Source: Blastocatellia bacterium (GTDB taxonomy: Bacteria > Acidobacteriota > Blastocatellia > UBA7656). Taken from it: a stretch of 64,000 nt of DNA. Position numbers and translations under genes: made by a program. Shown here in pieces: positions 2,199-35,809 of the stretch; position 1 is the stretch's first letter; each line of letters starts with the position of its first letter. Below the pieces are notes generated by a model. The model saw only the letters and a list, made by a program, of their open reading frames with translations, was not told the origin of the DNA and did not search any database. The DNA lies in the NCBI GenBank assembly GCA_039648975.1, contig JBBWZK010000069.1, forward strand, positions 4,428-68,427, in the 5' to 3' direction.

Positions 2199-2552
2199 TT
2201 ATCTTCTTTCAAAGTCTTTCCTGACTGCGCTGAGTATCTGATTGAACAAGTCCCTCTCGCGTTGGACTTCCGCTTTGAAGTCTGCCCGCTGTTGAGCAAG
2301 CTCGGCCCGAAACTCGTCCCGTTGTTCGCGCATTAACGTGTGGTGTCGCTCATTAACTTTGTCGAGGGTTGTGCCAAAACTCTTTCGTTGAGCCTCAAGT
2401 TGAGCCGTGAAGTCTGCCGTGATTTTTGGGAGCAAGGTTTTGAAAACATAATAGACTAGCCAAGCGACCAGTGCGAACGAGCCGAAGTTTACGACCGTCT
2501 TTATCCACTCGGCCTCCCCTGCGGGCACTTGAAATAAAAAGAAAGCAAGCAT
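2199..2552 (-). CDS. Small membrane-anchored coiled-coil protein, last gene of the phage operon (possible holin/lysis or exclusion function)
   Basis: One hydrophobic helix (VVNFGSFALVAWLVYYVF) is followed by a charged helical tail. It lies downstream of the tail genes. There is no enzymatic motif. Confidence 0.4.
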   Translation of the reverse strand: MLAFFLFQVPAGEAEWIKTVVNFGSFALVAWLVYYVFKTLLPKITADFTAQLEAQRKSFGTTLDKVNERHHTLMREQRDEFRAELAQQRADFKAEVQRERDLFNQILSAVRKDFERR

Positions 2553-2633: not shown

Positions 2634-3458
2634 CTAAGAATAGAATCCATCCGAGTGAGCAAGGTCAGAATGTGCGTCCACATGAGCCACATCACTGTGC
2701 GAGTCGCTGTGAGCGGCATCACTGTGCGCTGTATCCGTATGCGCCGCATCCGAGTGCGTGTCGCTATGGCCTGCATCCGTGTGCGAATCCGTATGCGCCG
2801 CATCCGTATGCGTGTCAGTATGTGAGTCCGAGTGAGCCGCATCGCTGTGAGCGGCGTCGCTGTGAGCAACATCTGTGTGGCTGTCCGTATGATTATCCGC
2901 GTGAAAGTCACTATGATGCGGCGGGTCGAAGTCGTCTGTGTGAGCATCACTATGAGTATCTGAATGCGAATCGCTGTGAGCCGCATCAGAGTGAGCAGCA
3001 TCCGAGTGCGCCGTGTCAGTATGCGTATCTGAATGCGAATCCGTATGAGCCGCATCGGTATGTGAATCACTATGGCCCGCATCACTGTGCGTATCGCTAT
3101 GAGCAACGTCACTATGCGCAACATCGCTGTGCGCCGTGTCAGTATGAGCATCGGTGTGCGCCGCATCGGTATGGGCATCTGCATGGGGACTGTCACTGTG
3201 ATTATCGTCAGCGGTGCGCGCTATCCCGCCAAAGATAATCCAGCCATGTGAGTATCTGCCGAGCAGCACAACCTCACCTGCGACGGGCCGGTAGCCACTC
3301 AGATATGGGAAGCCCTTGCTGGTCGCACCGCTCTCACCGTCAAAGATGACCGCAGGCAAACCTGTACCCGGATAGGCAGGGTCGATGCGAGCCTTTGCTA
3401 CTTCCAGTAGCCTGTCAGCTACTAGCTCCTGTGTAATTCCGATTATTTTTGAGGGCAT
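2634..3458 (-). CDS. Tail-tip/fibre protein: 85-aa N-domain plus ~185 aa of H-[S/T]-D repeats
   Basis: The ORF is open to 3473. The ATG at 3456-3458 sits 1 nt after the upstream stop (3460-3462), matching the tight coupling of neighbouring genes. The N-domain is paralogous to the preceding gene. The C-terminus is HSDxAHTDxA-type repeats. Confidence 0.6.
   Translation of the reverse strand: MPSKIIGITQELVADRLLEVAKARIDPAYPGTGLPAVIFDGESGATSKGFPYLSGYRPVAGEVVLLGRYSHGWIIFGGIARTADDNHSDSPHADAHTDAAHTDAHTDTAHSDVAHSDVAHSDTHSDAGHSDSHTDAAHTDSHSDTHTDTAHSDAAHSDAAHSDSHSDTHSDAHTDDFDPPHHSDFHADNHTDSHTDVAHSDAAHSDAAHSDSHTDTHTDAAHTDSHTDAGHSDTHSDAAHTDTAHSDAAHSDSHSDVAHVDAHSDLAHSDGFYS
2650..3205 (-). repeat. Imperfect 12-15-nt periodic coding repeat (His/Asp-rich)
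   Basis: About 60 H-S/T-D triplets in two blocks, split by DFDPPHHSDFHADN. The periodicity keeps several frames open on both strands. Confidence 0.85.
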
Positions 3459-3459
3459 A

Positions 3460-3708
3460 TTACGAATTGACAATCTTGCCGAGTATCACCCATGAGCGGC
3501 CATAACGAATCATTGCCACTTGGTCGCCGGGCGCAGGGTGATAACTGCTGAGATAGGTATAGCTCTTGGTCGTTGCAGAGGTTTCGCCATCAAAGACAAC
3601 GGTCGGGCGCAAGGAACCATCCCAGGCGGGATTGATGCGCGCCTGCCGAGTATTTGGCTCTGGCTTGCTGTCCACAATGATTTCAATAACCTTGCTTGCC
3701 TTGCTCAT
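3460..3708 (-). CDS. Small tail-tip protein, paralogue of the N-domain of 2634-3458
   Basis: ARINPAWDGSLRPTVVFDGETSATTKSYTYLSSYHPAPGDQVAMIRYGRSWVILGKI aligns with ARIDPAYPGTGLPAVIFDGESGATSKGFPYLSGYRPVAGEVVLLGRYSHGWIIFGGI. The ATG at 3706-3708 lies 2 nt after the upstream stop at 3711-3713. Confidence 0.6.
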   Translation of the reverse strand: MSKASKVIEIIVDSKPEPNTRQARINPAWDGSLRPTVVFDGETSATTKSYTYLSSYHPAPGDQVAMIRYGRSWVILGKIVNS

Positions 3709-3710
3709 CT

Positions 3711-6278
3711 CTACACCGTGACGATGCGACGGACACTGAGTTTCATCGTGCCGCCCGGACGCATGTCGATTTCCCATTCGAGGACTTCGTACCTTGCGCG
3801 AAGCCTGAACGGGTCAAACTCAAGGTAAATAGAATCGTTGTGGCCGAGCAGAGGCACGATGCCAACTTTCATATCAACTGACTCGTAAATCTGTGAGAGT
3901 TGGAAAAGGGTCTGAACCGCCAGTGCGTCGAGTGCCGTTTGGTCGGCGGCCTGTACGTCTTTGATGACGCGCACTATCTCGCGCCCCCGGCTCGGTATGC
4001 TCGTCGGTGATTCAGGGTTGTTGTTGCTCAACTCACTACGAAGCGGACTCGTTAGTTCCGGCTCGCTTACGATAAGGACGACTGTGTTGGGTACGCCGTA
4101 GGCATCGAGTTCTAATGTCGCCTCCGATTCAACGAGCGACATCTTGTCAGTCTTGAAAGAAAAGATAGGTGTTTGCTGCTGTGGATTCACCCATGCGAGC
4201 GCAATAAACAGGCCGTTCTCGTCAAAGTAATGCACGTAACTTATGGCGGCGCACAGGTCGTCAATGATTTGATAGATAGACGTGCCCGGCTCCCATTCGA
4301 GTGAAGTAGGCAGGGTCGATGTGGTGGCATCGATGTTGTAGCTCGTGATGCCTGCCGTTGCGAGTGCCGCCTTAATTGCTGTTACATAATTCGTGCCTGC
4401 GGCAACGTAGTAGCGGTTCTTTACAATGGTGTCGCCAAGCAGGTGATTGAGGTCGTAGCCATCTATTTGATAAGTAACAGTTCCGCCCGCCGTAGAGTTC
4501 GGGCGAGCGGTTGGTAATACGAATACACCCTGCGCAAACTCTATCCACTTCGAGTTGCTTGAACTTAGAAAGCGCAGGCTTATATCGTTCAGCGTAGGGG
4601 TCTGATTAGTGTTGCTCGTGGTCATGGTTACTTTGACCACAATCGACTTGCCCGCAAGATTGTCGCCAACACTCAGCCCCGGTACTGGCCCGCCGTTGGT
4701 TGCTCGTTGATAGCTGCCCGTGCCAACTTTCACATCAACCGCAAGCGTACAGGCCGCAGGCACGTCCGCATTCCACGAGATGAGGCTGCTCTTGAGATAA
4801 TCGGTAGGGCTGTTGTCCTTGACGGCGATATTGTCGAAGCGCCCGCCGTTGCCGCCGTCGCCGTGGACAGCGATATAGCCGCCGTTGTTGGCGAAGGTGT
4901 ATGTCCCGTAAGAGACACCATCGATGAAGCCCTCGACGGTCGTTGTGCCGATGATGAGCTTAACGTGATGCCATGCGCTCACGCTGACACTTGAGTAACC
5001 CGATGGAGATGACCAACTCGTCCAGCTACTCGTTGACGCAAATCCAGATGAGAGTCCCGCTCGACCTTCAATCCTGAACATCTGCCCGGCTCCGCTGGCG
5101 TTGCACATAAAATAGAAGTTAGCCAACGGGGTTCCCGGCAGCACATACACGTCAAACTCGATTGTCTGATTCGGCGCGACGCCGACGTTACGGTAGGCGT
5201 ACTGAGAAGTCAAAGCCTGAAGAGAGGGCGCAGGGTTGCCGTTCGAGGTATCAACCGTCGCGCTTACTGCCGTCCATTGAGATAAGGAGCCGCACGCATC
5301 AGGGCCATAGATATAAGTCGGGTCTATCGTCGCCGGGCTGAACTCAGGCGATACCCAGTTGCCGCTCGTGTTATAGGGTGCTGATGCACCGAGCGTGACT
5401 GTGCCGTTTGAGTTGGCTGTCACGCTCGTTAAAGTGCCGCTTTGAAAATCAGCCTGCGAGGTTGCCGTGTAGTTGGTCAGCGCGGGCATGAGCAACTTCA
5501 CGTAGGGCATCATGCGGCTGTTAAGAAAGTTGACCGTATCGCGGCTCGTACATGAGAAATACTGATAGTGGTCGTAGGCGGTCGCATTGTTACACCAGAT
5601 GCCGACGCCGCCCACAGCCGTGATGGATGTATCCGTAACGTCGATTACAAGTGCGCCGTTGAAGAAGGCTTTAAGACGCGAACCTTCAACCCTGAAGGCT
5701 ATTGTTGCTGTCGGGCCACTGCGCACAAACGTCGGGTCGGATGAGCCGAGAGCCGTCAGGGTGCCATTTAGTTTTCTCCACAAGATGAGGTTGTTTGTGG
5801 GGTTCTGCCCGCTGTCGTCCGAAACTGATAATAAATAAAAATTGTTCTGGTCTCGGAAGCGCGCAACCAGCCCGCCGTAATGCATCTGGTTAGACGCCAT
5901 CTCTAACTCAACATCTGTGTAGGTAAGCTGGTCGCGTATGTATTGGCAGTCAAACCCGTTCAGGCCGAGTAACTCACCGTTCGCGGTGTCCCATGTGAAA
6001 ACAGAGCTACCGTTGCCGTTGAGCACCCACTCCGCCGAATGGTCAAACTCGAACCGTTCAGTAAAGCCGAGGTCATCCTTATAGCTGGCCTTGAGCGTGC
6101 GGTTTATATCTCTGTCCTGTTTGCTGTAGCTGACCGTGAGCTTATCGATAGTCGTGATTTCTCGTTGCTTGACGTTGCTGCTGTTGAGCAAGTCAATCCT
6201 GAAATCAAGCTCGCGCCTTTCATCGAGTAGGGCGTCTATAATCTCTTGGTCGGTGTATCCGTTGCGAGCGATTATCAT
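3711..6278 (-). CDS. Large tail-tip / receptor-binding protein with two concanavalin/LamG-like lectin inserts
   Basis: 855 aa, positioned after the tape measure and distal tail genes. Two segments have jelly-roll-like patterns (..NNFYLLSVSDD..IAFRVEGSRLKAFFNGALV.. and ..FYFMCNASGAGQMFRIEG..WHHVKLIIG..). The start overlaps the upstream stop (TAATG). Confidence 0.55.
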   Translation of the reverse strand: MIIARNGYTDQEIIDALLDERRELDFRIDLLNSSNVKQREITTIDKLTVSYSKQDRDINRTLKASYKDDLGFTERFEFDHSAEWVLNGNGSSVFTWDTANGELLGLNGFDCQYIRDQLTYTDVELEMASNQMHYGGLVARFRDQNNFYLLSVSDDSGQNPTNNLILWRKLNGTLTALGSSDPTFVRSGPTATIAFRVEGSRLKAFFNGALVIDVTDTSITAVGGVGIWCNNATAYDHYQYFSCTSRDTVNFLNSRMMPYVKLLMPALTNYTATSQADFQSGTLTSVTANSNGTVTLGASAPYNTSGNWVSPEFSPATIDPTYIYGPDACGSLSQWTAVSATVDTSNGNPAPSLQALTSQYAYRNVGVAPNQTIEFDVYVLPGTPLANFYFMCNASGAGQMFRIEGRAGLSSGFASTSSWTSWSSPSGYSSVSVSAWHHVKLIIGTTTVEGFIDGVSYGTYTFANNGGYIAVHGDGGNGGRFDNIAVKDNSPTDYLKSSLISWNADVPAACTLAVDVKVGTGSYQRATNGGPVPGLSVGDNLAGKSIVVKVTMTTSNTNQTPTLNDISLRFLSSSNSKWIEFAQGVFVLPTARPNSTAGGTVTYQIDGYDLNHLLGDTIVKNRYYVAAGTNYVTAIKAALATAGITSYNIDATTSTLPTSLEWEPGTSIYQIIDDLCAAISYVHYFDENGLFIALAWVNPQQQTPIFSFKTDKMSLVESEATLELDAYGVPNTVVLIVSEPELTSPLRSELSNNNPESPTSIPSRGREIVRVIKDVQAADQTALDALAVQTLFQLSQIYESVDMKVGIVPLLGHNDSIYLEFDPFRLRARYEVLEWEIDMRPGGTMKLSVRRIVTV

Positions 6279-8068
6279 TACACTTCTTCTGAGTAGGCTG
6301 TACCAAGCAGGTCGATGCCGACCGTGTCATTGTTAAGCTCGTGATTGAAGGAGCGCGGGCGAGTGGTCAAAACGCCGAAGTAGACATCGCCGCGAGGGGT
6401 ACGGACGCAAAGGGTTGCCCTGCGCTCGACTAAAGCTGCGAAGCTATCCCACTTCGCTTCCGAGGTTGGAATCTCAAGGGTTATCTTGACGGACTTCTTC
6501 TTGGCTTTGCCCCATTCCGCAACGTCACCTTCGCGCCCTAGATAGCGTTTGAGAATGACTTCAGGCTCCCAGTTATCATCGACGCGAGCTTCGAAGCCTG
6601 CGAGATTGAGCGCGGTTGATTGCGCATTGCGAACGTCATGGAGCCATACCCCACTGAGCGTGTAGGTATTGCCGCTCGAAACGGTTGAATCCTGAATCGC
6701 GCCGTTGTCTCCGACCGCACGTACCTTGTAAGAGATTGCTTTGTTGCTCGGAGCCGTATAGTCACGATAGGTTGCGCCGCTTGTTATGCTCTTGGCGATG
6801 CGGGTGTATTTCGTCTCGCCCGCAACCATTCGGTAAACCTGATTCTCCGTGAGGTTCGGCTGCCCTCCGCTCGGCGTCGGGTTCGTGATGGCGATAGACA
6901 TATAGCCGCCGCTCGCTGTGGGCGTGACTGCGATTGTCGGTGTCGCCGGATTCGTGAGGTTGGTTGTTACTACACTCGAAGCCTCCGCACTCGTCACACC
7001 ATCGCTGTTTACGATTGAGACATAGTAGGTGTAAGCGGTATCGTCTGCGAGGACGACACTCGGCACAACGCTTGTCGCCGTACTGGTTACAACACCGCTG
7101 TCATAGGTTGAGGTGCCATCGCTTTTGACGATGCGAATGCGATACTTCACCTGCCCGCTGCTCGTCCAAGTGACGGTAGGCTGCGAGCTTGTAATCGTGC
7201 CCGTGGGAGCCGTGATGCTCGGCGTTGCTGCCGCATTGCCCGCCCGCACGGTCGTCTGAGCCGAGTACGGGCCGAGTGTTGATGTATCATCGCTGCTCGC
7301 TGTGCGTACTCGCCACTCTATGTCCTGTGCGCTGCCATAGGTGTTCGCGGGCAAATCGTAAAACTGACTACTCGTGGTCTGAGTTACCGTAGTCCATGAA
7401 CCTGCGCCAACCGCCCGATGCTGGAATTCAAAGGCTCCCTGCGACTTGCCGCCTGCGTCATTGTGCGTCCACGAGAACCGCTTAATTGCCGTCCTGTCGA
7501 ACGGCGTTGTCGGGCTGAGATTCGTCGGCGCGGAGATTCTGTGATAGGTGATGACGAGTCGCGGACTGGCACTCGTTGCCGACGTACCCGCCGTGAATGT
7601 CATGGTGGATTGCGTGCCGAAATTCTCTGTCCCGTTATTGAGGCGCAACCCGATGTAACCATTCTTGGGAATGTTCGAGATGTTCGAGAGCGTTAGCGTA
7701 TTGTCTGCACTCAGGGTGAATGAGGCTTGCGTGACAGTAAAGGCAAGCGAACCGACCGTCGCATTCCAGTCGGTTGTATCAATCGAGCCATCGTGTGTGT
7801 AGTAGCTGCCCTGAACGTTCGGGTCGGTGAGTCCGGTCGTGCGCGCCGTTGGCTTGATGGTCAGAAATGCCGACACAACAGTCGCATCTACAGGAAGCCC
7901 AACAAAGAAACGAAGAAAGGCTCGCCAAGCATAGTAAGACGAGCCTGAGATAAGTCCCGACTTGACTTGGATAACGTTCGCATCTACCTGAGAGGCTCCG
8001 CCGTCCGTCGTTGCTTCTATCGTTGCGTTGTCACTTGTTGCTGATTGATAGATTGTTACCTGAGACAC
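6278..8068 (-). CDS. Minor tail protein (distal-tail position) with fibronectin-III-like repeats
   Basis: 596 aa immediately after the tape measure gene. It has S/T-rich beta-sandwich repeats (..PTNLSPTTPFDRTAIKRFSWTHND.., ..PSITAPTGTITSSQPTVTWTSSG..). Confidence 0.5.
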   Translation of the reverse strand: MSQVTIYQSATSDNATIEATTDGGASQVDANVIQVKSGLISGSSYYAWRAFLRFFVGLPVDATVVSAFLTIKPTARTTGLTDPNVQGSYYTHDGSIDTTDWNATVGSLAFTVTQASFTLSADNTLTLSNISNIPKNGYIGLRLNNGTENFGTQSTMTFTAGTSATSASPRLVITYHRISAPTNLSPTTPFDRTAIKRFSWTHNDAGGKSQGAFEFQHRAVGAGSWTTVTQTTSSQFYDLPANTYGSAQDIEWRVRTASSDDTSTLGPYSAQTTVRAGNAAATPSITAPTGTITSSQPTVTWTSSGQVKYRIRIVKSDGTSTYDSGVVTSTATSVVPSVVLADDTAYTYYVSIVNSDGVTSAEASSVVTTNLTNPATPTIAVTPTASGGYMSIAITNPTPSGGQPNLTENQVYRMVAGETKYTRIAKSITSGATYRDYTAPSNKAISYKVRAVGDNGAIQDSTVSSGNTYTLSGVWLHDVRNAQSTALNLAGFEARVDDNWEPEVILKRYLGREGDVAEWGKAKKKSVKITLEIPTSEAKWDSFAALVERRATLCVRTPRGDVYFGVLTTRPRSFNHELNNDTVGIDLLGTAYSEEV

Positions 8069-8070
8069 TA

Positions 8071-11000
8071 CTACGTTCTCCTGATGCGAGTGCGAAACTC
8101 GCCCACAAGGCTCTCGACAAATTCATTGGCGCTGTTGTACTGGTCGAGGTCGCGGGCTTCGATGGTGACGTTGATATTGCCGTTGAAGACGTTGGTCGTA
8201 CCCGCGCCTGCGCTGGCTGCGAAAGAGGATTCGCCGTAGTTGGCGCTGACAACGACGAGAGGCTGCGTGGTCGCGCCTACCGATGAGGCTGCCGCTGCCG
8301 CTACGGTCTGCCCTGCCTGTGCTGCCAACGTGCCTAGCGCCTTGCCTGCGTCCGCGAGCGCCGCCGCAATCAGCACCGCCGCATCTCTGAAAGCGGTCGC
8401 CAGCTTCTCCCCTTCGAGCGCAAGGTCGAGTGTCTCCGAGAGCAGCTTGACCGCGTTTTTGAAGTCGCTAATGACCGCTGCAAAGATTTCGGCAGGGATT
8501 GATTTGTAATCGCGCAGGGCCGTGAATGCCTCAACGCCCGCTTTGATTGCCGCAAAGATAGCCGTCGCTTTCTGCGAGAACGCGGTCGCCAGCGACAGCA
8601 TTTGCGTATCCATCGCGGCAACGAGTTCCTGCATCTTCTCGACTGCCAGCTTTATGTCGGCAAGGAAGGAGTCGAAGATTGAAGCATCAAGGGCTTTGTA
8701 ATCGTTGACACCTTGCAGCGAGTCCACGCCGTCTTTAATCAGCGAGACTATCGATTGCGCCCGGTCGCTGAACTTCGCTGCCCACTTCAGCCCTTTGTTA
8801 GAGATGTTCTCCGAAATCTCTATCATTCGCTCGATGGCGTAATCGAGGTCGGCGGCAAACTGGTCGAAGATTTCAGATGAGATGCCTTTGTAGTCGTTGA
8901 GCTTGAGGAAGGCATCAACGCCCGCACCAATGGTGTTCACCACTTCGGCAGCCCGTACCGCAAACTTCTTCGCGTGCTTGACCGCTGAGTTCTCGAAGTT
9001 GTCGCTTATCGCTATGAACAACTCGACGCTGCGCTGGAGAGCTTCGCCAAAGAGGGTGATTGCTTGGTCAGGTACGCCCGTGAAGAAGGAGAGCTTTTCA
9101 AATGCGTCAACGCCTGCACCAATCGCTTCCAGAACCGGGCCGACAGACTCCGCAAATTTCTTCGCGGCATCTATCATCGAGACGTTCCACACCTTAGCGA
9201 GCGAGATGAAAAGCTCGATAACGGTGTGCATCTGGTTAAAGAATTTGTGAATCGCGCCTGACGGGACTTTGGTGAAATCGGCCAGCTTCTCAAAGGTTTC
9301 TAATGCCTTCTGCATCGTGTCGAATGCAGCCTGCATTACATCCTGAGCGCCCTTTTGGACATCCTGCTTGAGTCGCTCTAATTCGAGCCGCTCCTTTTCC
9401 TTCTGAGCCGCACTCTTGCCCCCGCCGAACAATCCGCCGAGGATGCCCCCGATGCCGCCAATCACGGCTCCTATCGGGCCGCCCGCTGCGAAGCCCTGCA
9501 ACGCACCCTGTAAGCCGCCTACAAGCGCACCAATTGCCTTGCTGCCGGTTGCCGCCGCTGTGGATAGCCCTGTGATGAAGCCGCCGAGGGCTGCCTGCGC
9601 GACGCCGAACGCCTTTGATATGCGCCCGCCGCCTTCTTCCGCGCTGCTCGCTATCTCACCTGTTGATTGCGAGGCTGCCTTTGCTGCTTTTTGAATCTGG
9701 TCTTGAGTAGAGTTAACGGTATCGAGTACAACCTGATTCGACTTCTTGAAAATCTTGGAGATTGAATCAACCAGCCCTTGCAGCCCGTCCGGTATCTGGT
9801 TGAATACCTGATGAAGCCCATGCAGGACTGAGTTGATTTTATCGACCCAAGTGAGAAACTTGTCGGTTATCGACTTGAGCTTGTCACCGACCGCGCCCGG
9901 CACATTCTCAAGCGCCTCGATAATCCCGCCGATGCTGCCTTTTACTTTCGCGCGGAAGTTGGGGTCGAACTTGCCCCACACGTCAAGCAGCTTGTTTACC
10001 GTGCTGTCGAGTGCGCCCGGCAGCTTGTTAATGCCGTCAGACCATTCCTTGAGAACTGCCTGCGCCTGTACCCGCACCGCTGGCGGGAGTTGCGCCATCT
10101 TCTCGTTGACGAACTTAACGAGGTCGGTTCCTGTTAGCCCCGCCTGCTCGCCTAGCTTCTGGAAGGTTGAGATGGTGCCTTCAATCGAGGAGCGAATCTT
10201 TAACTGGGCTTCGGCAACCTGAACGCCCTCGTCCATCTTTAGGGCGTCCTCGATTTTCTGGACGCTGCCAATGATGGTGACTGCCGCCTCAGAGAAAGGC
10301 TTTGGCGCTTCACGGCCTAGCTTATCGAGCCGCGCCTGCATCTCATCGGCGCTGCCGTAGACCTTGAGGAAGGCTGTCTTAACCTTGTCGGCAAACTCCT
10401 GCGCCGACTTGTCGCTGGCGTTCGCCATGTCAACAAGGCCCTGCGGGATTTCCTTCAGGACAGGCGGGAGAATCCGTATCTCCGCCTTCACATCGGCAAG
10501 GTGCTTCTTAACCGTGTCAGAGAATTTGTCGAAATCGGCTTGTGTAACCGAAACTATAAGATGGGTTGAGGTCGCGGCTGCTGCCTGTACGCGCTTTAGC
10601 TCGTCACTGAATTCCTTATAGATTTGCGACTGCCTGATGAGAGAAGCCCGCAGGCTCTTTTCGAGTTCAAGGAATTGCTTATCGGAGAAGGTGTCCAGCC
10701 CTCTCGACTTGATGTAATCGTTTACGCCATCGAGGATTTCTTTGAAGGCTTCCTTAACAGACTTCGCTACCTTCTTGAATCCGGGCAGGACAGCTTTCTC
10801 AACTTTGTCAGGCGTCGTAGCGAGTAGGTTGACAACCTTTGCGACCTCGGCATCCATGCCTGCAAGCCCGGAAGCAAAGCCGTCCTTGATGCTCTTGCCA
10901 ACGCCCTTCGAAGGGCCGGATACACCTACACCCGCTTTGTTGAGAAGGTTGACGAGTCCCTTCTCCATATTTGCGGTGTCTTTCTCAGGGCCGGATGGCG

Positions 11001-27874: not shown

Positions 27875-30800
27875 ATGCGTATTGACGAATCAACCCGCAA
27901 CACACTTAGCCAGTACCTAACGGATATTCGAAGCCTGCCGAACGAGTCCGCGAAAACAAACAGGTTCTCCGCGCTCGTTGCCACGTTGTTTCCCGGCACC
28001 TCTGCGTCCACTGAGTTAGCAGCAGGGGTCGAGAAGATGATTCGCATCGATACGTTGGACGGTGAGAAGCGAGGGCGGATGGATGCCTATTACGGCAATG
28101 CAATCGTGGAGTTTGAAAGGTCTTTGAAGGCTACTGGGGCGGAAGCTGAAAGGCAGTTGAGGGAGTATACGGCGGGCGTTTGGAAAAAGAGCAAGGAGAG
28201 AAGACAAATCCTGTGTGTAGCTTCTGACGGTATCGTGTGGAAAACTTATCGGCCATCGCTCAAGGAAGGAACGAAGGCGAAAGTCACACCTGAAGACGTT
28301 GTATTGGAGTCACTGAGAACTATTGAAGTCACCGAGCAAACGCTTGATGACTTTTATATGTGGCTGACCAGTTTTCTTTTCCGGCCTTCTCGCATCGCGC
28401 CGACCGCAAGTCAATTCCAGTTTGACTTCGGGGCAACCAGTCCGGCCTTTGTCGATGCGATGGAAACATTAAGCCGAGCATGGGAAGCCGTTAGTAAAGA
28501 GTCCGAGCCGCAGTTGATGTACAACACATGGCAGAGGTATTTGACGGTCACATACGGCCAACTCGGCAAGGCTGAAACTCAAGAACTCCACAAGCTGTTT
28601 TTGAAGCATACCTATCTCGCAAGCGTTGCCAAACTGCTGATATGGGCATCCCTCTCGCGTGGCAGAACCGAAACCAGCCTTCGTGAAGTTGCGAAGGAGA
28701 TTCTGTCGGGCCAATATTTTCAAGCTCGAAAGATTGCCAATCTCGTTGAGGACGATTTCTTTCAGTGGGTGAGGCGGCCAAAAGCTGAAGCCATCGTTTC
28801 GGAAGTATGGGAGCGAATCCTCGACCAGATGACCACTTATGATTTGCCGCTTCTCAATCAAGATGTTCTGAGGGGCGTGTATCAAGAGCTAGTCGACCCG
28901 AAAGACCGTCATGAATTAGGCGAGTACTATACGCCCGAATGGTTATGCGAAAGGGTTGTCGATGAACTACTACCTTCAAGCGGGTTCGTGAGCGTTCTCG
29001 ACCCCACATGCGGCTCAGGCAGTTTTCTACACGCTGTCATTGCTCATCAATTAAATGCAAATCAGGAAGGCGGAGATGCAACACGCCTGCGCCAAATACT
29101 CGAAAACGTAGCGGGGATAGATATTCATCCACTGGCCGTCACTATAGCGAAGGCTACTTATTTGCTCGCGGTGCGCTCGCTGTTGAAGGCAACGAAGCGG
29201 CCCATTCAAGTCCCTGTCTACCTTGCCGATTCGCTCTTTCTACCAAGAGAGGTGTCACAAATGAGTTTTGGCGAAGTGCCAGGCTATGAGATACGCTTCG
29301 GCAAAGATAGCAAGGTGTCCATCCCTGAAGAACTTGTCCAAACGCCCGAATTGTTTGACCCCGCGATTGCGGCATCGGCGCAGATTGCCCTCGACCATGC
29401 AAAGACCAATAAGGAGAGCGAGAAATCACTTCAGGCATATCTAAAGCAGGCCGTGCCCGAACTCATCGAGCATAAAGACTCGGATGCGATGGTTACTGCG
29501 CTTTGGTCTTTCACAAAGGAGTTGAGCAGCCTGATAAAGAAGAAAGAGGACACCATTTGGGCCTTCATCGTGAGGAACAGCTACCGGCCAGCGATGTTCC
29601 GAGAAAGATTCGACTATATAGTTGGCAACCCTCCGTGGCTCTCATACAGATACATTTCTGACCCTGAGTATCAAGCCGAGGTAAAGAAGCGGGCCATTGA
29701 CGATTATGGCATAGCTCCTAATTCTCGAAAGCTATTCACGCAAATGGAGCTTGCTACAATCTTCTTAGCTCACACTCTTTCAACATTCGGGCGGAAGGAT
29801 GCTCACCTCGCATTTGTATTGCCTAGAAGCGTGGTGTCGGCTGACCAGCATGAGAATTTACGAGTACGCAGCTATAAAGCGCCGATAGAACTGTATGAAC
29901 TTTGGGATATGGTTGATGTATATGAAATATTCAAGGTTCCGACGTGCGTCCTATTCGCTAAGAAGATAGATAAGCCCGTCGTACCTTCCACCAACTATTC
30001 TCTTCCTGCAATCGAATGGAGCGGCGACTTACCATCCCGCGATGTGGCATGGAGTGAGGCGCAGAACTATTTAACAAGTGAAAAAGCCACAGCGAAGATT
30101 ATCTATCTAGGAGAGCGCACCGCCCTTTCCACGAAGCCCGGTAGAACCAAGCCCAACTCTCCCAGTTTGTACTCAAAGGATTTTCATCAGGGAGCTACCA
30201 TTGTCCCGCGTAGTGTCTACTTCGTTCAGGCCGAGGGGCTTGAGGGCGAAGCGGACGCCGATAGTCTCTACTGGGCAGAAACCGAGCCTGAGCAAGCTAA
30301 GGAGGCAAAGGAGCCGTACAAAGATGTTTATCTCAAGGGACACGTTGAGGGACGCTTTTTGTTTTCGACGGCTCTATCTAGGCACGTCCTACCGTTCGTA
30401 TTCTTAGAGCCTGCCGTCGTGGTTCTACCTGTCGAAGAAAATAAAGGAAAATTAGAGTTAAAGACTGCCGACCAGTTAAGAGAGGAGGGATACAGAGAAT
30501 TCTCGTCTTGGATGGAGCAAGCTGAGACAATATGGAACTCAAAGCGCGGAGATAAAGCCGACAAGCAAACCATCTATGAAAGGCTAGATTATGGTAGTGG
30601 ACTGACCATCCAAAAACCTAATGCAAAATACATCGTGCTTTACAACGCCGCAGGAACTAACATCTCGGCAACTCGCGTGTTCCGAAAGGACTTGGTGCTT
30701 CCTTTTATTATCGAGCATAAATTGTATTGGTGTGCTTGTGCGAACGCTGACGAGGCAGATTACTTAACGGCAATTCTGAACGCTGAGTATGTTAACGATT

Positions 30801-31066
30801 TAATCAAACCCTTCCAGTCTCATGGACTAATGGGCGAAAGGGATATTGAGAAGAAGGTTCTAGACCTTCCCATCCCTCCGTTTAACCCTAATAAGTCAGA
30901 GCACAATGACATTGTTGAATTAGGGAAACGGGCGCGACTCGAAGCGGCAGCATTCGTAAAGAAAGTCTCTTTTCCAAAATCGCTCGGCAGACGCCGCGCT
31001 ATGGTCAGAGAGGCTATTGTGGACACGCTACAGGAAATCGACATGGCTGTAAAAAAACTGTTTTGA
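27875..31066 (+). CDS. MmeI/PglX-like single-chain N6-adenine DNA methyltransferase (possible type IIG/IIL enzyme)
   Basis: SAM motif I is VLDPTCGSGSFL (28994-29029) and motif IV is NPPW (29627-29638). The N-terminal block GRMD70AYYGNAIVE79FE81R resembles the MmeI-family D..ExK nuclease motif, with Lys replaced. About 400 aa of TRD-like C-terminus follows. GGGAGG lies upstream of the ATG. Confidence 0.75.
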   Translation: MRIDESTRNTLSQYLTDIRSLPNESAKTNRFSALVATLFPGTSASTELAAGVEKMIRIDTLDGEKRGRMDAYYGNAIVEFERSLKATGAEAERQLREYTAGVWKKSKERRQILCVASDGIVWKTYRPSLKEGTKAKVTPEDVVLESLRTIEVTEQTLDDFYMWLTSFLFRPSRIAPTASQFQFDFGATSPAFVDAMETLSRAWEAVSKESEPQLMYNTWQRYLTVTYGQLGKAETQELHKLFLKHTYLASVAKLLIWASLSRGRTETSLREVAKEILSGQYFQARKIANLVEDDFFQWVRRPKAEAIVSEVWERILDQMTTYDLPLLNQDVLRGVYQELVDPKDRHELGEYYTPEWLCERVVDELLPSSGFVSVLDPTCGSGSFLHAVIAHQLNANQEGGDATRLRQILENVAGIDIHPLAVTIAKATYLLAVRSLLKATKRPIQVPVYLADSLFLPREVSQMSFGEVPGYEIRFGKDSKVSIPEELVQTPELFDPAIAASAQIALDHAKTNKESEKSLQAYLKQAVPELIEHKDSDAMVTALWSFTKELSSLIKKKEDTIWAFIVRNSYRPAMFRERFDYIVGNPPWLSYRYISDPEYQAEVKKRAIDDYGIAPNSRKLFTQMELATIFLAHTLSTFGRKDAHLAFVLPRSVVSADQHENLRVRSYKAPIELYELWDMVDVYEIFKVPTCVLFAKKIDKPVVPSTNYSLPAIEWSGDLPSRDVAWSEAQNYLTSEKATAKIIYLGERTALSTKPGRTKPNSPSLYSKDFHQGATIVPRSVYFVQAEGLEGEADADSLYWAETEPEQAKEAKEPYKDVYLKGHVEGRFLFSTALSRHVLPFVFLEPAVVVLPVEENKGKLELKTADQLREEGYREFSSWMEQAETIWNSKRGDKADKQTIYERLDYGSGLTIQKPNAKYIVLYNAAGTNISATRVFRKDLVLPFIIEHKLYWCACANADEADYLTAILNAEYVNDLIKPFQSHGLMGERDIEKKVLDLPIPPFNPNKSEHNDIVELGKRARLEAAAFVKKVSFPKSLGRRRAMVREAIVDTLQEIDMAVKKLF

Positions 31067-31190
31067 TAGTTGTGTCTTTTTTTTAAGTTAGACAGGCTAG
31101 AGGTTAGAAGCGGAGAAACCTTCCTTGCTTGACAGAGTAACTGCCAGTCAAAATAATGAGGCCGCACGTCATAGGAAGAGGGGAGAGCGT

Positions 31191-32342
31191 GTGAGTCAGC
31201 ATAACCAGATGGACTTATTTGGTCAGCCAATAACTGAAAAAGTCCTATTAGAAAATGACGTTCACTTGCTGGCCCTAACCGAGATTCAGGGTATCGGTTC
31301 TGCGACCGCTCGGTCATTTTTTGAAATGTTTGATGGCGATTTATCGCGGGTTTGGAGCGCGCAGGCAGAAGAGTTATATGAAGGGCTGCGGAAGTCACGG
31401 GCGCAACATCCGATAAATATTGTCAACAAAATACACAAAGACTCTGCGAAGCTAATCGAGTTGGCGCGAGACCGGCTTCGGATGTTCAAGGAGCGAAGGA
31501 AGATTTCGGTCATTTTCCGCGACACCCCCGAATACCCAGTCACGCTCCTTGACCTGCCTAATCCGCCTGCATGGATATTTGTACAGGGCGATTCAAAGCT
31601 CCTACACAACACAAATCTCGTCGCGGTTGTTGGCACTCGCACGCCCACAGAGAACGGAATTGAAGCGGCCAAACGGCTCTCAATTTTACTCGTCACAAAC
31701 GGAGCCTTGATTCTGTCGGGTTTGGCTGAAGGCATAGACGAGGTGGGCCATCGCACAGCCGTCGACCACGGTGTTCCTACCGTCTCGGTGTTAGGTCACG
31801 GCATCGACATCGTATTTCCTCGGTCAACTGCTGCCTTACGGCAACAGATAATCGATGTCGGCGGCGCTGTGGTGACTGAATATCTGCCGAGAGACTCCTA
31901 CAATGCCGAGCGATTCGTTCAGAGAAACCGCATTCAGGCTGCGCTCTCACAAGCGGTTGCGATTGTGGAAGGAAAGACAAAGAGCGGTACGGCGCATACG
32001 GTACGTTTTGCCAAACAACTTAAAAGGCCGTTGTTCGGCGTCCGAATTGGTCGGCCAACTAAGTCACCGAATCAGGAATTGCTCGAAGAGTTGAGTAAAA
32101 ATAATGCGCCCGTGTTTGACCTCGATGCTCTTGATACAAAGGAAGCTCTGACTAAATTTATGCACGAGCATCTTTCTTTGGGCAATAATCTACATGCCCC
32201 TGCCAAGCCGTCGCGGTTCCGCATGATTCTGAAAGAACTCGATAGGATTATTGAATACTATGGCGCGAATGACGCAGACTATCAGTACCTCATTGATGAA
32301 ATAGACCAACGCCGTAAAGGAAGTAAGAAAGATGCCAATTAA
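31191..32342 (+). CDS. DprA/Smf-family (SLOG Rossmann) protein
   Basis: VAVVGTRTPTENG..LSGLAEGIDEVGHRTAV..TVSVLGHGIDIVFP..RFVQRNRIQAAL..VEGKTKSGTAHTVRFA is the DNA_processg_A pattern. An N-terminal HhH/SAM-like segment (LLALTEIQGIGSATARSFF) is present. The start is ambiguous: TTG 31125, GTG 31191 after GGGGAG, or ATG 31209. Confidence 0.8.
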   Translation: MSQHNQMDLFGQPITEKVLLENDVHLLALTEIQGIGSATARSFFEMFDGDLSRVWSAQAEELYEGLRKSRAQHPINIVNKIHKDSAKLIELARDRLRMFKERRKISVIFRDTPEYPVTLLDLPNPPAWIFVQGDSKLLHNTNLVAVVGTRTPTENGIEAAKRLSILLVTNGALILSGLAEGIDEVGHRTAVDHGVPTVSVLGHGIDIVFPRSTAALRQQIIDVGGAVVTEYLPRDSYNAERFVQRNRIQAALSQAVAIVEGKTKSGTAHTVRFAKQLKRPLFGVRIGRPTKSPNQELLEELSKNNAPVFDLDALDTKEALTKFMHEHLSLGNNLHAPAKPSRFRMILKELDRIIEYYGANDADYQYLIDEIDQRRKGSKKDAN

Positions 32343-33486
32343 GGCTGTTATACTCGACCTTGATGGAACGCTCATCGATACCACGGACAATATCGTGGCC
32401 GGTGTTCCACAGATGATTTCGAGTCTTCAACAGAATGGCGTAGCCGTCTATGTTGCGTCCAACAGATTGCCTGCGCCACCAGTGGATTTTAATGGGCTAG
32501 GAATAACTCCGAACGAGTACCTCACGAGGCGCAGAGTTGGCCAACGTAAGGGAACGGGTGCGTTTGTTGATGCGGTTCTAGCAAACCTTAGAATCGAAAG
32601 AAATGAACTCCTATATTTGGGAGATTCCGTCAATGATATGAGAGAGGCTGTTAATAGTAAGGTAGCCTTCTTTCTAGCGGCTTGGTCAAATCCAACGTAT
32701 TCATACGGGCTTGCAATTAAGACGCCTGCGCGATTTGCTCATATCGTGAAGACTTTTTTCTTAAAAGACAAGCTATGGTTTTACCGGATAAACAGTGTCG
32801 ACCACCTTACTCGAACTGTCGCTGTACGAGCACTCCTAGACCCGGACACCGCAATTTCAACTGGCATCAGAGACCTCCTAAAAAGGAATATACTTGGCCC
32901 ACCTATAAAGACCTATTCCCTACCTGCCTATTTATCCTTCCATCTGTTCTCAAGCGTGTATCTTGAGGGCTTACATTTACATGGAAGTCAGGGAGGGCCA
33001 ACCATTTGGTGTATTTATCCGGGGCATGATGGCAGTCAGGGCAGAGTCTTAAGTACTTTCGCACAGGTGGTATCACGATTGTTTCATGACAATTATCAAC
33101 CTTCTTTAATTAATCGGCATACTCCTTCTATAAAAAGTGCATATGCACGATGGCGCGGCGAAACGGTCGATTTTGCTAATCAACTAAAGACAATCAACCT
33201 CTCTCCTGCACTTCGCAGATTCATAGAAGACAGGACTATATTAGTCTTTGACGATTTCACTACTGAGGCTTATAGCTTTGAAGCGGCAAGGAACTTTTTA
33301 TACAACGCAGGTGCGCGTGAAGTAATCAGTATTGCTGTTGGGAAGTATCGGAAACCCTACTATCCTCACTGTCCACATCCCGGCGTTGTTTGGGATAGTT
33401 TCGCTCCCGCCAATCTTGAGGATAGAGATTTTAGAATCGACGCAGTTGAGGAAAACTACGACCTCGATGCGGTCACTCCCTTTTAG
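32332..33486 (+). CDS. HAD-phosphatase :: ComF/GntX-like phosphoribosyltransferase fusion
   Basis: HAD motif I is VILDLDGTLIDT and motif IV is YLGDSVNDMREA. The C-terminus IWCIYPGH..LINRHTPSIKSAYAR..ILVFDDFTTEAYSFEAARNFLYNAGAREVISIAVGKY is a PRTase fold with a non-canonical PRPP loop. It overlaps the DprA-like gene by 11 nt. Confidence 0.65.
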   Translation: MPIKAVILDLDGTLIDTTDNIVAGVPQMISSLQQNGVAVYVASNRLPAPPVDFNGLGITPNEYLTRRRVGQRKGTGAFVDAVLANLRIERNELLYLGDSVNDMREAVNSKVAFFLAAWSNPTYSYGLAIKTPARFAHIVKTFFLKDKLWFYRINSVDHLTRTVAVRALLDPDTAISTGIRDLLKRNILGPPIKTYSLPAYLSFHLFSSVYLEGLHLHGSQGGPTIWCIYPGHDGSQGRVLSTFAQVVSRLFHDNYQPSLINRHTPSIKSAYARWRGETVDFANQLKTINLSPALRRFIEDRTILVFDDFTTEAYSFEAARNFLYNAGAREVISIAVGKYRKPYYPHCPHPGVVWDSFAPANLEDRDFRIDAVEENYDLDAVTPF

Positions 33487-33526
33487 TAGTTGCCAATCCC
33501 TATATTGGGTAGGCCATTAGACGCCT

Positions 33527-33558
33527 AAAAAAAAGGGGCAAGCCCGAAAGCCTACCCC
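33527..33558 (-). terminator. Intrinsic terminator of 33568-34194
   Basis: The minus-strand RNA is GGGGUAGGC-UUUCGG-GCUUGCCCC followed by U8. The G-U pairs make the stem strand-specific. Confidence 0.65.
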
Positions 33559-33567
33559 GCCTGCGCT

Positions 33568-34194
33568 CTACAGCGTGCCGCATGGTCTAGCACCACTCCA
33601 TACCCGTTTGAGGCTGCCGCCCGGCCCCCACTTCGTCTTCCGATACAAGGCGTCCACGTACCAAACGTAACGCACGCCGTCCTGCAAGGTACGGAGGCAC
33701 ACGATGTCTACGCCGCCTAAGTTCTCATAAGGCAGTCTGTCCCTGCCCAAGTTTGCCCACTCGCCGCCCGGCTGGATTCTGTGCCCGTGCAGGCGGTAAA
33801 ACCCGTCGTCCTTAGAGTGCGAGTTCCAGCCAAACTGGAGGCGCTCCTCGTGCAAGGCGTACCCCTCGCGGGAAAGAAACCAGCGCCGCTTGTACTCCTC
33901 AAGGCCCGCCAGTTTCATGTCCATGTCGACTACCACGATGCCGTCGTGCGCCTCCCGCCTGTCCCTGTCGTGGCTGTAGTTGGATACACGCTCCGACGCC
34001 AGAAGCCAGATAGCCCGTGCGTGCGTTTTCACATAGTCGCTCACTGCAATAGCCGCAGCCGTAAAGTCATCCTCGGTTACGGATTCCTTAGCTGCTTTGC
34101 GCCGTGCCGAGCCGCCCGCATGACGAGCGCCGGTCGCCGTAGGCAGATAAATCACGTTGGTCGTTTCTGTGTTCTCGGTTCTTTCGTTCATCAA
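33568..34194 (-). CDS. Hypothetical protein (GC-rich orphan inside the island)
   Basis: 208-aa ORF with its own terminator. I recognise no motif. Confidence 0.4.
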   Translation of the reverse strand: MMNERTENTETTNVIYLPTATGARHAGGSARRKAAKESVTEDDFTAAAIAVSDYVKTHARAIWLLASERVSNYSHDRDRREAHDGIVVVDMDMKLAGLEEYKRRWFLSREGYALHEERLQFGWNSHSKDDGFYRLHGHRIQPGGEWANLGRDRLPYENLGGVDIVCLRTLQDGVRYVWYVDALYRKTKWGPGGSLKRVWSGARPCGTL

Positions 34195-34508
34195 AATTCG
34201 TCTCCTTTTTTCATTGATTTGGGGATAAAACTAGCCCCTCTAAACTCCCGATTTTGAAGTCCCGATTTGCTTTGTTTGTCAATAACAAAATGCAGGCATG
34301 AGCAAAAAAAAGGCAGGCCGTTTAAGCCCGCCCGGTGCCCATTTTAAGCGTTGTATATGTCCTTCTCCGGTGTATTCTAGTGTTTCATCGCAATAGATTT
34401 GATGGACGGAATGCAAGAAATCGCCCGAAAAAAGGAGATTCTATCCTACAAATTCATTGCGATGAAACACAAGGACGCCCTCCATTCTTTCATTTCCCTA
34501 AAAGGTAA

Positions 34509-34537
34509 TTGACATTTCTCTCATTAAATAATATAAC
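34509..34537 (+). promoter_or_regulatory. Sigma70-type promoter for the membrane-protein pair
   Basis: TTGACA (34509-34514), a 17-nt spacer, then TATAAC (34532-34537). It lies about 60 nt upstream of the ATG at 34600. Confidence 0.5.
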
Positions 34538-34599
34538 GTGCGCATCAATTGGATTTCCTTAGCAAAATGAGTTGATAAATTTACACTAGGCGGATATAT

Positions 34600-35295
34600 A
34601 TGAGTGCACCAGATAAACAACCACCGAATCGTTACGAGAATTACAAAAAACGAGCTAAAAAACAGGAAGACTTTACTAGGAAATCCACTATCAACGTGAC
34701 TATATCAATTATAGTGGCGCTATTCGGATTAGTGTTCGCTCTATTTGTCATGTATAAAGATGTTGAATTTCAAAAGCAATACAATTGGAAATTGATAGCG
34801 GTATTGAGTTCTATCGGGTTCATAATTCTTGCTCTAATGGCCTTATATACGCCACGATTACTGAAATTAAATCCAAAAACGGAAAGTCAGACAGAAAAAA
34901 AAGAGGTGGGATTAAGGGCTACAGTTGTCGGCTTATTAGTAGATGATAAACAAAAGAGCTTTTTTACTATATATATATCACTTTTAATAGGTTTCCTTAT
35001 TTATCTAGTTTCGATTTATTTTGCAGGTCAGGCTATAAGCATAGGAACTCTGTCTTTACTAGCAGCTTTCCTATTAGCACTCTTTCTTAACCAATACTTA
35101 TTGAAGTATCGATTGAAATATGGATACTTTGGCACGACCGAACACGAAGCACGCGAGATAATTGACCTAATTCTCAAACATTCTGATAAATCAGACTTCT
35201 CCGATGGGGATGGCCTTAATGAGCTTTTCCCTGAACCAGAGAGAGGGGGGACGGGGCATCGAGTATTAGTTCCATCACTGGACAATGACAGATGA
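34600..35295 (+). CDS. Four-TM membrane protein, unknown function
   Basis: 231 aa with four hydrophobic helices and a Lys-rich N-terminus. It is very AT-rich. Confidence 0.5.
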   Translation: MSAPDKQPPNRYENYKKRAKKQEDFTRKSTINVTISIIVALFGLVFALFVMYKDVEFQKQYNWKLIAVLSSIGFIILALMALYTPRLLKLNPKTESQTEKKEVGLRATVVGLLVDDKQKSFFTIYISLLIGFLIYLVSIYFAGQAISIGTLSLLAAFLLALFLNQYLLKYRLKYGYFGTTEHEAREIIDLILKHSDKSDFSDGDGLNELFPEPERGGTGHRVLVPSLDNDR

Positions 35296-35738
35296 AAAAC
35301 GCTGATGCTGATTCGGTGACAGCCTTTCTTAAACGGGCAACTGATATTTTGTTCGTACAGAACCCAAAAGGAACTGCACTAGGAGTCCTCTTCGGATTTA
35401 TGCTGTATGGACTTTCACTAATGTTTGCTCCTGCTTTGGGAAAAATTAGCTTTATAGACCTTACTAAGGTTTATGCAATCTACTATGTGATTTTCGGAAT
35501 GTTCGTTTTTAACATACGCTCTTACTTTCGGAGACGAGAGTTCAGCCCGGAAATTGAAAAGGCATTTGAGGTAATTAGGGAAGCACGCAAGTCAGGGAAT
35601 ATGGGTGAACTAGAAGCAAAGATAGAATATCGCAAACTGATTCATAAGGTGTTGGAAGAAGTAACAATCAAGGTTCCTCCAACACCTGAACCGCGACGCC
35701 GAAAACCTATTGCCTCCAAATCCCAATCAGGTAGTTAA
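35292..35738 (+). CDS. Two-TM membrane protein with a charged helical tail, unknown function
   Basis: 148 aa, with an ATGA overlap onto the previous gene. It is AT-rich. Confidence 0.5.
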   Translation: MKNADADSVTAFLKRATDILFVQNPKGTALGVLFGFMLYGLSLMFAPALGKISFIDLTKVYAIYYVIFGMFVFNIRSYFRRREFSPEIEKAFEVIREARKSGNMGELEAKIEYRKLIHKVLEEVTIKVPPTPEPRRRKPIASKSQSGS

Positions 35739-35809
35739 TTCACCTTGAAGTCTTTACCCGCTAAACCTTATTTTAATCGGGCTATGCGCTACCAAACTTC
35801 CACCTCGCT

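Follow-up and report, generated by a model that had tools for sequence, protein, structure and literature searches.

How does a phage protein that consists, over most of its length, of closely spaced His-x-Asp (HxD) motifs hold together as a part of the virion, and what might such a part be for? The question is raised by a gene in a stretch of 64,000 nucleotides from Blastocatellia bacterium (GTDB lineage Bacteria; Acidobacteriota; Blastocatellia; UBA7656), namely positions 4,428 to 68,427 of contig JBBWZK010000069.1 in assembly GCA_039648975.1; the whole of this stretch is referred to here as the window. Its 274-aa product joins a small N-terminal domain to a 189-residue array of HxD motifs, and the gene stands at the end of a siphovirus-type tail module (Table 1). 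The usual means of stabilising a phage fibre is a trimeric β-structure, in some cases supplemented by a few HxH metal sites. The best reading of this protein, given about an even chance of being correct, is that of a trimeric needle of a siphovirus-type prophage that would need no modifying enzyme and would be held by its own His/Asp ladder, through metal ions or salt bridges. On this reading the feature is a fibre or needle of a phage tail whose ladder is based on His.

Past residue 85 the protein is almost purely composed of H-x-D units of four or five residues each (HSDAA, HSDS, HTDT and similar). The translation agrees with an earlier note on this DNA in having an 85-aa N-terminal domain followed by two repeat blocks, which are split by the sequence DDFDPPHH. 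The array described there is real, but the figures of about 60 His-Ser/Thr-Asp triplets and roughly 30% His were too high: 40 HxD motifs are counted, 37 of them H[S/T]D, and His accounts for 21.7% of the residues in the 189-aa repeat region and for 15.3% of those in the protein as a whole. Asp makes up a further 22.2% of the repeat region, in which the charged residues are 41 His and 42 Asp, with no Glu, Lys or Arg, and which is also free of Cys. In 20,000 composition-preserving shuffles of this region, the mean number of HxD motifs was 9.0 and the maximum 19, against the 40 observed. The protein has no match in Pfam, NCBIfam or the sequences of the PDB.

The order of the four- and five-residue units is mirror-symmetric. 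Unit lengths in the first arm run 5 4 5 4 5 5 5 4 5 4 5 4 4 5 5 5 4 4 4, and those in the second arm run 4 4 4 5 5 5 4 4 5 4 5 4 5 5 5 4 5 4 5, which is the exact reverse. The His-to-His spacing across the turn is 9 (context H-T-D-DFDPPH-H-S-D), and a mapping of residue i to residue 355-i places every arm-1 His (20/20) opposite an arm-2 His. This mirror match of 19/19 was reached by none of 2000 shuffles of unit order, and the direct-repeat register, corresponding to a duplication, fits far more poorly (11/19). Relatives of the array have mirror scores of 15/17 (P0001), 14/16 (P0002), 16/19 (P0004), 11/11 (P0012), 10/10 (P0021), 9/9 (P0057) and 17/19 (P0272); mirror symmetry at a shuffle p<=0.05 is found in 24 of the 95 testable family members, and the two arms are nearly always equal in residue length. 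Many relatives carry, exactly at the turn, an insert of 30-90 residues rich in aromatic residues, Gly, Pro or Cys, in keeping with a head domain at the distal end. An antiparallel fold-back in register calls for palindromic spacings of this kind, and the array is read, from its sequence, as a probable antiparallel hairpin in exact register, with the tip at the turn or at an inserted domain.

An orthologue of 276 aa, 71% identical, is encoded on IMG/VR contig 3300044457_000003 (locus L001). It has the same 19/19 mirror pattern and an identical DDFDPPHH turn, and the two arrays align with zero indels. Conservation between them amounts to 93% for His, 95% for Asp and 56% for the other repeat residues, while about half of the conserved His/Asp codons differ synonymously. 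Nei-Gojobori estimates for the pair give saturated synonymous divergence (dS) and a nonsynonymous divergence (dN) of about 0.3 in the N-terminal domain and in the array alike. As judged from this comparison, the array is under strong purifying selection.

The position of the gene and the family of its N-terminal domain place the protein at the tail tip. A siphovirus-type structural module, free of any sheath-sized gene, occupies the minus strand from about 23.3 kb down to 2.2 kb, its genes following the order large terminase, portal, protease, major capsid, decoration-like protein, tape measure (1729 aa), Dit-like protein (596 aa), Tal-like protein (855 aa), an 82-aa protein, the array protein and a 117-aa membrane/coiled-coil protein. 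The array gene thus closes the tail module, behind the genes for tape measure, Dit and Tal, just where the earlier note had located it, and its assignment as a distal tail-tip protein is supported by this gene order. On the evidence of profile matches, the N-terminal domain is a true member of the phrog_12764 family (E 1e-11 over residues 6-79; E 1.7e-20 against a hidden Markov model built from 122 family members), with conserved columns at P35, F39, D40, G41, L53, Y56, P58 and G77. A single-sequence word search with the domain gave no relatives, an alignment query being required; the profile search returned 198, nearly all of them stand-alone proteins of about 80 aa from phages and prophages of Bacillus, Geobacillus, Priestia and Clostridia. 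Small tail-tip proteins of the phrog_12764/phrog_26792 type, such as 019DV002 gp30, Finn gp28 and Novomoskovsk gp33, share 28-35% identity with the domain and the core FDGE...YLSSY.P. In cultured Bacillus and Geobacillus siphophages (Novomoskovsk, 019DV002, Jayan, Finn, GBK1) their gene is likewise the last of the tail module, just ahead of the lysis genes. The Novomoskovsk member is annotated as a receptor-binding protein, and in the Andromedavirus group the gene has an extension of about 115 aa. Unlike these mostly stand-alone proteins, the protein described here carries an HxD array, a fusion found only in the lineage of the window and L001 among the loci examined.

An AlphaFold2 (AF2) model of the N-terminal domain, made with 122 sequences, is a confident small β-barrel with a predicted local distance difference test score (pLDDT) of 82 and a core above 90. 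Foldseek searches of BFVD with this model gave matches to a Bacillus phage vB_BpsS-36 protein with collagen triple-helix repeats, at its N-terminus (E 6e-6), to a fibre that has an endosialidase-chaperone domain, and to proteins annotated as 'Gp5/Vgr OB-fold domain' (oligonucleotide/oligosaccharide-binding fold; E 2e-3 to 9e-3). Matches in the PDB were weak (E 0.05-0.3) and included P2 gpV (3qr8, E 0.058, query TM-score 0.54), the R2 pyocin spike (4s37), Mu gp45 (9ki1_V), P1 (9vzk_q) and baseplate spikes of contractile injection systems, which lie among generic OB-folds, for example proteasome Rpt and YjeQ. The domain is accordingly read here as an OB-fold anchor of a kind that bears trimeric fibre modules at the tail tip. 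The 82-aa protein encoded directly upstream is a paralogue of the domain, both belonging to phrog_12764; its gene meets the array gene at a stop/start junction (TAATATG) and overlaps the stop of the Tal-like gene. From this gene order, both OB-fold proteins most likely dock on the Tal-like protein. The side-by-side occurrence of the anchor domain, once bare and once with an array, is seen in the window and in L001 alike.

Relatives of the array are numerous and are accompanied by enzymes. A word-indexed search gave 132 proteins that share the array, and an exhaustive phmmer search of 1.84 billion representatives gave 223 clusters at E<=1e-3, 100 at E<=1e-10 and 16 at E<=1e-30. The array is nearly always C-terminal and is attached to varied, unrelated N-terminal parts, including Ig/MG2-like domains, 'MAWTTPRTW...' fibre N-termini, 'GSxWxEGxxLHY' repeats, Tal-like/J-like proteins that reach 1400 aa, and bacterial proteins that are secreted. 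Nine genomic contexts were sampled, consisting of eight loci from contigs that encode array matches and the IMG/VR locus L002 from a first viral scan. In all nine, a gene of about 400 aa for a radical S-adenosylmethionine (rSAM) enzyme lies within 0-2 genes of the array gene, the gene call in L015 being N-terminally truncated. These enzymes belong to a single family (26-61% identity), whose nearest NCBIfam models are the rSAM/SPASM maturases DynA, AmcB and YhhB (E 1e-14 to 1e-21) and anSME; all scores are far below the cut-offs (51-75 bits versus 425-450 for the first three), which sets the enzymes apart as a separate family. The second conserved partner is a DUF483-like domain of about 200-250 aa, either stand-alone or fused to a methyltransferase-like C-terminus. 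Some array loci have, in addition or instead, a homologue of the α-ketoglutarate-HExxH (αKG-HExxH) peptide β-hydroxylases, and the one in L002 passes the TIGR04267 peptide β-hydroxylase cut-off (70.5 versus 40 bits).

Independently, IMG/VR was scanned with a degenerate DNA pattern that encodes HxDxAHxDxHxDxAHxD; this detected 42 loci, of which 39 had usable flanks. The rSAM gene lies immediately downstream of the array gene in 31 of these 39 and a hydroxylase homologue alone in five; L047 has a hydroxylase homologue downstream and the rSAM gene upstream. Neither enzyme is present in the remaining two, L045 and L049, the latter being the contig of the window's orthologue. The window is alike in this respect. 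None of its open reading frames (ORFs) of >=100 aa contains a CxxxCxxC motif, and tblastn with all rSAM, DUF483-partner and HExxH hydroxylase sequences of the family gave nothing at E<=0.01, either in the window or in the roughly 19 kb of L001. The gene directly after the array gene encodes the 117-aa membrane protein.

The cassette also occurs in cultured phages, namely the Thermus phages Cumys, phiMa and phiLo. In Cumys, an HxD-array protein, Cumys_13, is encoded after baseplate genes and directly upstream of the genes annotated 'rSAM protein' and 'DUF483-domain protein'. The paper on Cumys describes a three-gene 'rSAM module' that recurs in prophages, leaves the third gene unexplained and suggests a role in DNA modification (PMC11437467). 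This module is the same cassette, with the array in Cumys_13, an rSAM enzyme in Cumys_12 (51% identical to the enzyme of L011) and DUF483 in Cumys_11; the array and its placement in the tail module are not discussed there, and a DNA-modifying function fits the tail-gene context of Cumys poorly. The window protein, by comparison, is an array without the module. In the jumbo phage phiLo, the rSAM gene follows IS605 transposase fragments.

[quoted passage not shown] The nearest parallels are cellular. Triceptide synthases crosslink the C2 of His to the β-carbon of residue 3 on HAA, HNR and HTK motifs (PMC11499958). Triceptide precursors and the rSAM/SPASM enzymes that form three-residue cyclophanes on such substrates (HaaB, YhhB, HtkB), along with DynA of dynobactin, follow an Omega1-X2-X3 scheme in which position 1 is His or aromatic and residue 3 is modified, a motif which the 40 HxD of the window protein fit. 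Triceptide substrates are short leader-core peptides whereas an array substrate would be a virion protein of 200-1400 aa with 20-77 motifs, and triceptide systems encode their cognate rSAM/SPASM enzyme in the locus whereas the window is without one. In the HXS anti-phage system, the His-Xaa-Ser repeats of HxsA are matured by the rSAM enzymes HxsB and HxsC, and a covalent modification has been mapped to a repeat (PMC13128918). HxsA resembles the array proteins as a His-x-small/polar repeat protein coupled genetically to rSAM maturases; it differs in having five HxS repeats and a peptidoglycan-binding domain and in serving bacterial defence, compared with 40 HxD motifs in a phage tail protein. 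NCBIfam gave no matches to HxsA-D apart from a weak one to HxsB (E 1e-8) for the rSAM enzyme of one relative, and none of any kind for the window protein. It is tentatively proposed, with somewhat less than an even chance, that HxD arrays are the first virion structural modules to be matured by RiPP-type enzymes, either rSAM/SPASM with DUF483 or an αKG-HExxH β-hydroxylase, acting on the Asp β-carbon or the His ring to give a stapled or metal-chelating nanorod, and that the window protein would be either matured in trans or a derivative independent of the enzymes.

Individual members of the family vary further. The rSAM enzyme of L002 (9772-11100, IMGVR_UViG_3300050506_000126) has an HGD-rich C-terminal tail of its own (HGDAPHGDEHGDHWDD...PHGDAPHGDHTD) that resembles the presumed substrate, and the same contig encodes two HxD proteins, in one of which the array is internal to a protein of 1186 aa and is followed by a further domain. 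L045 (266-1573, IMGVR_UViG_3300043446_003463), the sole array locus without a nearby enzyme besides the contig of the window's orthologue, has many near-identical AHTDAHTDT copies that appear to be a recent expansion, along with a Cys-rich insert, and a 2680-aa ORF comes after it. The bacterial, non-phage locus L012 (GCA_973789185.1, CCZJXY010000031.1) combines an rSAM gene with a 513-aa partner, PqqD, ScmC/AAA_16 and NTP_transf_5; its HxD protein is secreted, with 319 aa and a signal-like N-terminus, which suggests a cellular, RiPP-like version of the system. A scan of genome contigs gave a single locus, which was discarded as spurious, the match being a PT-rich linker in an unrelated Binatia protein.

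For the window protein, the following arrangement is proposed. The OB-fold domain would anchor the protein, probably as a trimer, beneath the Tal hub; a trimer is suggested by the anchor's relatives, which bear collagen repeats and are similar to the OB-folds of spikes. The 189-residue array would fold back at DFDPPH so that the two 89-residue arms run antiparallel in exact register, giving a long, thin rod with 20 rungs of paired His, flanked by Asp, and with the conserved DFDPPH at its distal tip. With two arms per chain, a trimer would give a six-stranded rod, and two His per chain in each rung would give six His per layer. Since neither modifying enzyme is encoded here, the rod would be held by its own ladder, which may act by binding divalent metal ions, in the manner of T4 gp37, or through salt bridges between His and Asp. 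Compensation of the negative charges within the rod is argued from the 1:1 ratio of His to Asp and the lack of any other charged residue; metal ions or His-Asp pairs would neutralise the 42 Asp of each chain and would leave the rod sensitive to metal and pH. Such a rod could act as the distal probe or contact device of the phage at the start of infection.

The closest structural precedent is the T4 gp37 needle, in which, according to the passage of PMC11705849 that cites Bartual 2010, the chain folds back into antiparallel arms and six His serve as octahedral ligands for each of seven Fe ions. Both are distal tail devices of phages and both would have fold-back arms with the tip at the turn; regularly spaced, in-register His are common to the two, and a trimer of the window protein would provide the same six His per layer as in that account of gp37. 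The 'head' domains inserted at the turn in relatives of the array also recall the layout of gp37-type needles. The differences are that gp37-type needles, like P2 gpV and other spikes, use HxH, a motif absent from the window protein, and that there is no similarity in sequence or to PDB entries; the array consists instead of HxD in 4/5-residue units with 20 predicted rungs as opposed to seven, a 1:1 His:Asp ratio and putative metal binding. Moreover, the HxD family is linked genetically to rSAM and hydroxylase enzymes, and gp37-type needles are not.

Several other explanations of the array have to be weighed against a self-held needle. Repetitive coding DNA is easily misassembled, and Tandem Repeats Finder does report 12-, 15- and 27-nt periods, so that a collapsed or chimeric assembly, a concern of the earlier note, deserves attention; it is nevertheless next to negligible as an explanation. 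An independent Logan assembly of SRR27941616 (contig SRR27941616_1050521) has the same gene call with an identical 274-aa protein, and the 82-aa gene is also called in it; the orthologue from another metagenome has the same architecture; and the reading frame of the array continues without a break from the conserved N-terminal domain. The longest exact DNA repeat within the array is 20 nt, its codons for His, Asp and Ser are well mixed, with Ser drawn from both AGY and TCN, and the reported periods are all degenerate, therefore the DNA repeat is neither recent nor unstable. A hotspot of slippage or recombination, which the earlier note had thought plausible, is contradicted by the same data and by the indel-free alignment of the orthologue, with its same unit pattern, over saturated synonymous sites. 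These last features, together with the conserved His/Asp, also reject the idea that the array is the decaying, non-functional relic of an rSAM-dependent fibre in a defective prophage that has lost its maturase. The absence of the maturase cassette would fit such a relic, as would the lack from the window of the 503-aa tail-fibre gene of the orthologous phage and of any identified replication module (or integrase), with no endolysin evident beside the tail module. However, the ORF is intact in two lineages under strong purifying selection, both of which have kept the His/Asp residues and a perfect symmetry, and a relic is considered very improbable. Improbable, to a lesser degree, is a disordered, acidic, His-rich spacer or stalk with no fold or specific chemistry, comparable to the Ser-Asp (SD) repeats of MSCRAMM proteins, which are LPXTG-anchored adhesins. 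The sequence is of low complexity, and the only NCBIfam signals among relatives are weak, composition-driven matches to the SD repeats of ClfA, ClfB and Sdr (E 0.002-0.04, with model cut-offs of 999-2500 bits), the window protein itself having none. A spacer, on the other hand, has no need of an exact 4/5-unit mirror symmetry that is conserved in the orthologue, of equal 89-aa arms, or of 93-95% conservation of His/Asp without indels, and an SD-repeat-like spacer was rejected on account of the symmetry and of this indel-free, His/Asp-specific conservation.

A more serious alternative, which is possible yet on balance unlikely, holds that the array is a RiPP-type maturation substrate whose enzyme is supplied in trans, from outside the window or from the host, and that the fibre is covalently stapled. 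An rSAM/SPASM enzyme would crosslink His to the Asp β-carbon in triceptide-like manner, within a motif or across the arms, or a hydroxylase would β-hydroxylate Asp. Several results favour it and weigh against a ladder that needs no enzyme: a modifying enzyme is present in 37 of the 39 informative viral loci, immediately downstream in 36 of them, with rSAM in 32 (31 downstream and L047) and the hydroxylase only in five more; the sampled contexts all have an rSAM gene of the same family; and the window's closest array relatives (P0001-P0003, P0021, P0038), which are its best matches, come from rSAM loci. Covalent maturation may thus be what this type of array normally needs. The chemistry is also plausible, since the nearest models, DynA, AmcB and YhhB, are i-to-i+2 crosslinkers (albeit matched below cut-off), known triceptide synthases act on His and residue 3, the hydroxylase of L002 passes its family threshold, and the PqqD and ScmC genes of L012 are typical of a RiPP setting. 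The enzyme search covered the 64 kb of the window, which is all but about 9 kb of the 73-kb source contig, out of the host genome. The metal-ladder reading is further weakened by the absence of HxH from all 274 residues, the lack of any phmmer match at E<=10 among all PDB chains, and an AF2 monomer model of the array (62 homologues) with a pLDDT of 58 and no secondary structure, which is uninformative on fold or oligomer and is also what a disordered spacer would give. Against covalent stapling of this protein stand the window and the 19 kb of the orthologous contig, where no homologue of the rSAM, DUF483 or HExxH proteins is found, and the gene that follows the array here, a membrane protein at the place where relatives have their enzyme (0-400 nt downstream of the array gene); furthermore, modification is putative for every member of the family. 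The fibre reading of the earlier note, in which His would coordinate metal along a trimeric fibre, gains from the distal tail-tip position, from an N-terminal domain family that is fused elsewhere to obligate-trimer fibre modules, and from the fold-back layout of the array; the note had missed the linkage of relatives to rSAM and hydroxylase enzymes.

If the self-held needle is correct, the whole shaft would be a coded His/Asp ladder whose register is written as a palindrome of 4- and 5-residue units. The maturase linkage of the family, seen across at least 223 protein clusters, 42 IMG/VR loci and the cultured Thermus phages, suggests that phages apply RiPP chemistry to their own virion proteins, which, if confirmed, would be a new kind of virion maturation, and the window protein offers a natural control, being an array without the enzymes. 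The idea also bears on metal binding by phage particles, on the engineering of rigid protein rods and on the annotation of a recurrent 'hypothetical' tail gene.

Table 1. Coordinates of the array gene, its parts and related features (positions in the window, except for the last row).
Feature	Coordinates	Strand	Basis or remark
Whole gene, 274-aa tail-tip protein (predicted OB-fold anchor and HxD hairpin array)	2634..3458	-	ORF and translation; ATG at 3458, stop at 2634-2636, 274 codons
N-terminal domain, residues 1-85, putative OB-fold anchor, phrog_12764 family	3204..3458	-	Profile matches and AF2 model
Array arm 1, residues 87-175, 89 aa, 20 HxD motifs	2934..3200	-	Unit lengths
Turn DFDPPH, residues 176-181, predicted distal hairpin tip	2916..2933	-	Centre of mirror symmetry
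Array arm 2, residues 182-270, 89 aa, 20 HxD motifs	2649..2915	-	Unit lengths
C-terminal GFYS and stop codon	2634..2648	-	Translation; C-terminus of orthologue is GFYA
82-aa paralogue of the N-terminal domain alone	3460..3708	-	phrog_12764, E 1.4e-14; aligns with the family
Tal-like tail-tip/hub protein, 855 aa	3711..6278	-	phrog_1887 'tail protein', E 4e-34; phrog_177 'baseplate hub', weak
Cumys cassette, Cumys_13 to Cumys_11 (HxD fibre, rSAM, DUF483)	L061 3961-7191, PQ109079.1		Myophage; after baseplate and tail-collar genes

Additional features have been noted around the tail module. The Dit-like protein, which together with the Tal-like protein spans 3711-8068 on the minus strand, has Ig/FN3-like inserts (PF25788; phrog_37549), and residues 84-220 of the Tal-like protein form a weak 3-keto-disaccharide-hydrolase/LamG-like region, which suggests that both are 'evolved' carbohydrate-binding tail-tip proteins. 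The 117-aa protein encoded after the array gene (2199-2552, minus strand) is a coiled-coil protein with a single transmembrane segment and a weak match to phrog_404. In L001, two extra genes, for a 503-aa tail-fibre-like protein and an 81-aa protein (9086-10829), lie between the array gene and that of the membrane protein, and both are lacking in the window. Convergent with the tail module, genes for AbiJ_NTD4/DUF7014 (326 aa) and Abi_alpha (293 aa) proteins occupy 138-2015 on the plus strand, in a patch of low GC content (0.456 versus about 0.55); an Abi_alpha homologue is found at the equivalent place in L001 (11409-12335), and the genes in the window are probably phage-carried abortive-infection morons. 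Farther away, the region 27875-36568 encodes a Type IIG-like restriction-modification enzyme (N6_Mtase/Eco57I, 1063 aa), DprA and a HAD hydrolase, and ends in a truncated ComM-like ChlI/Mg-chelatase fragment of 252 aa (35810-36568), a possible marker of the integration site or of the element's right border.

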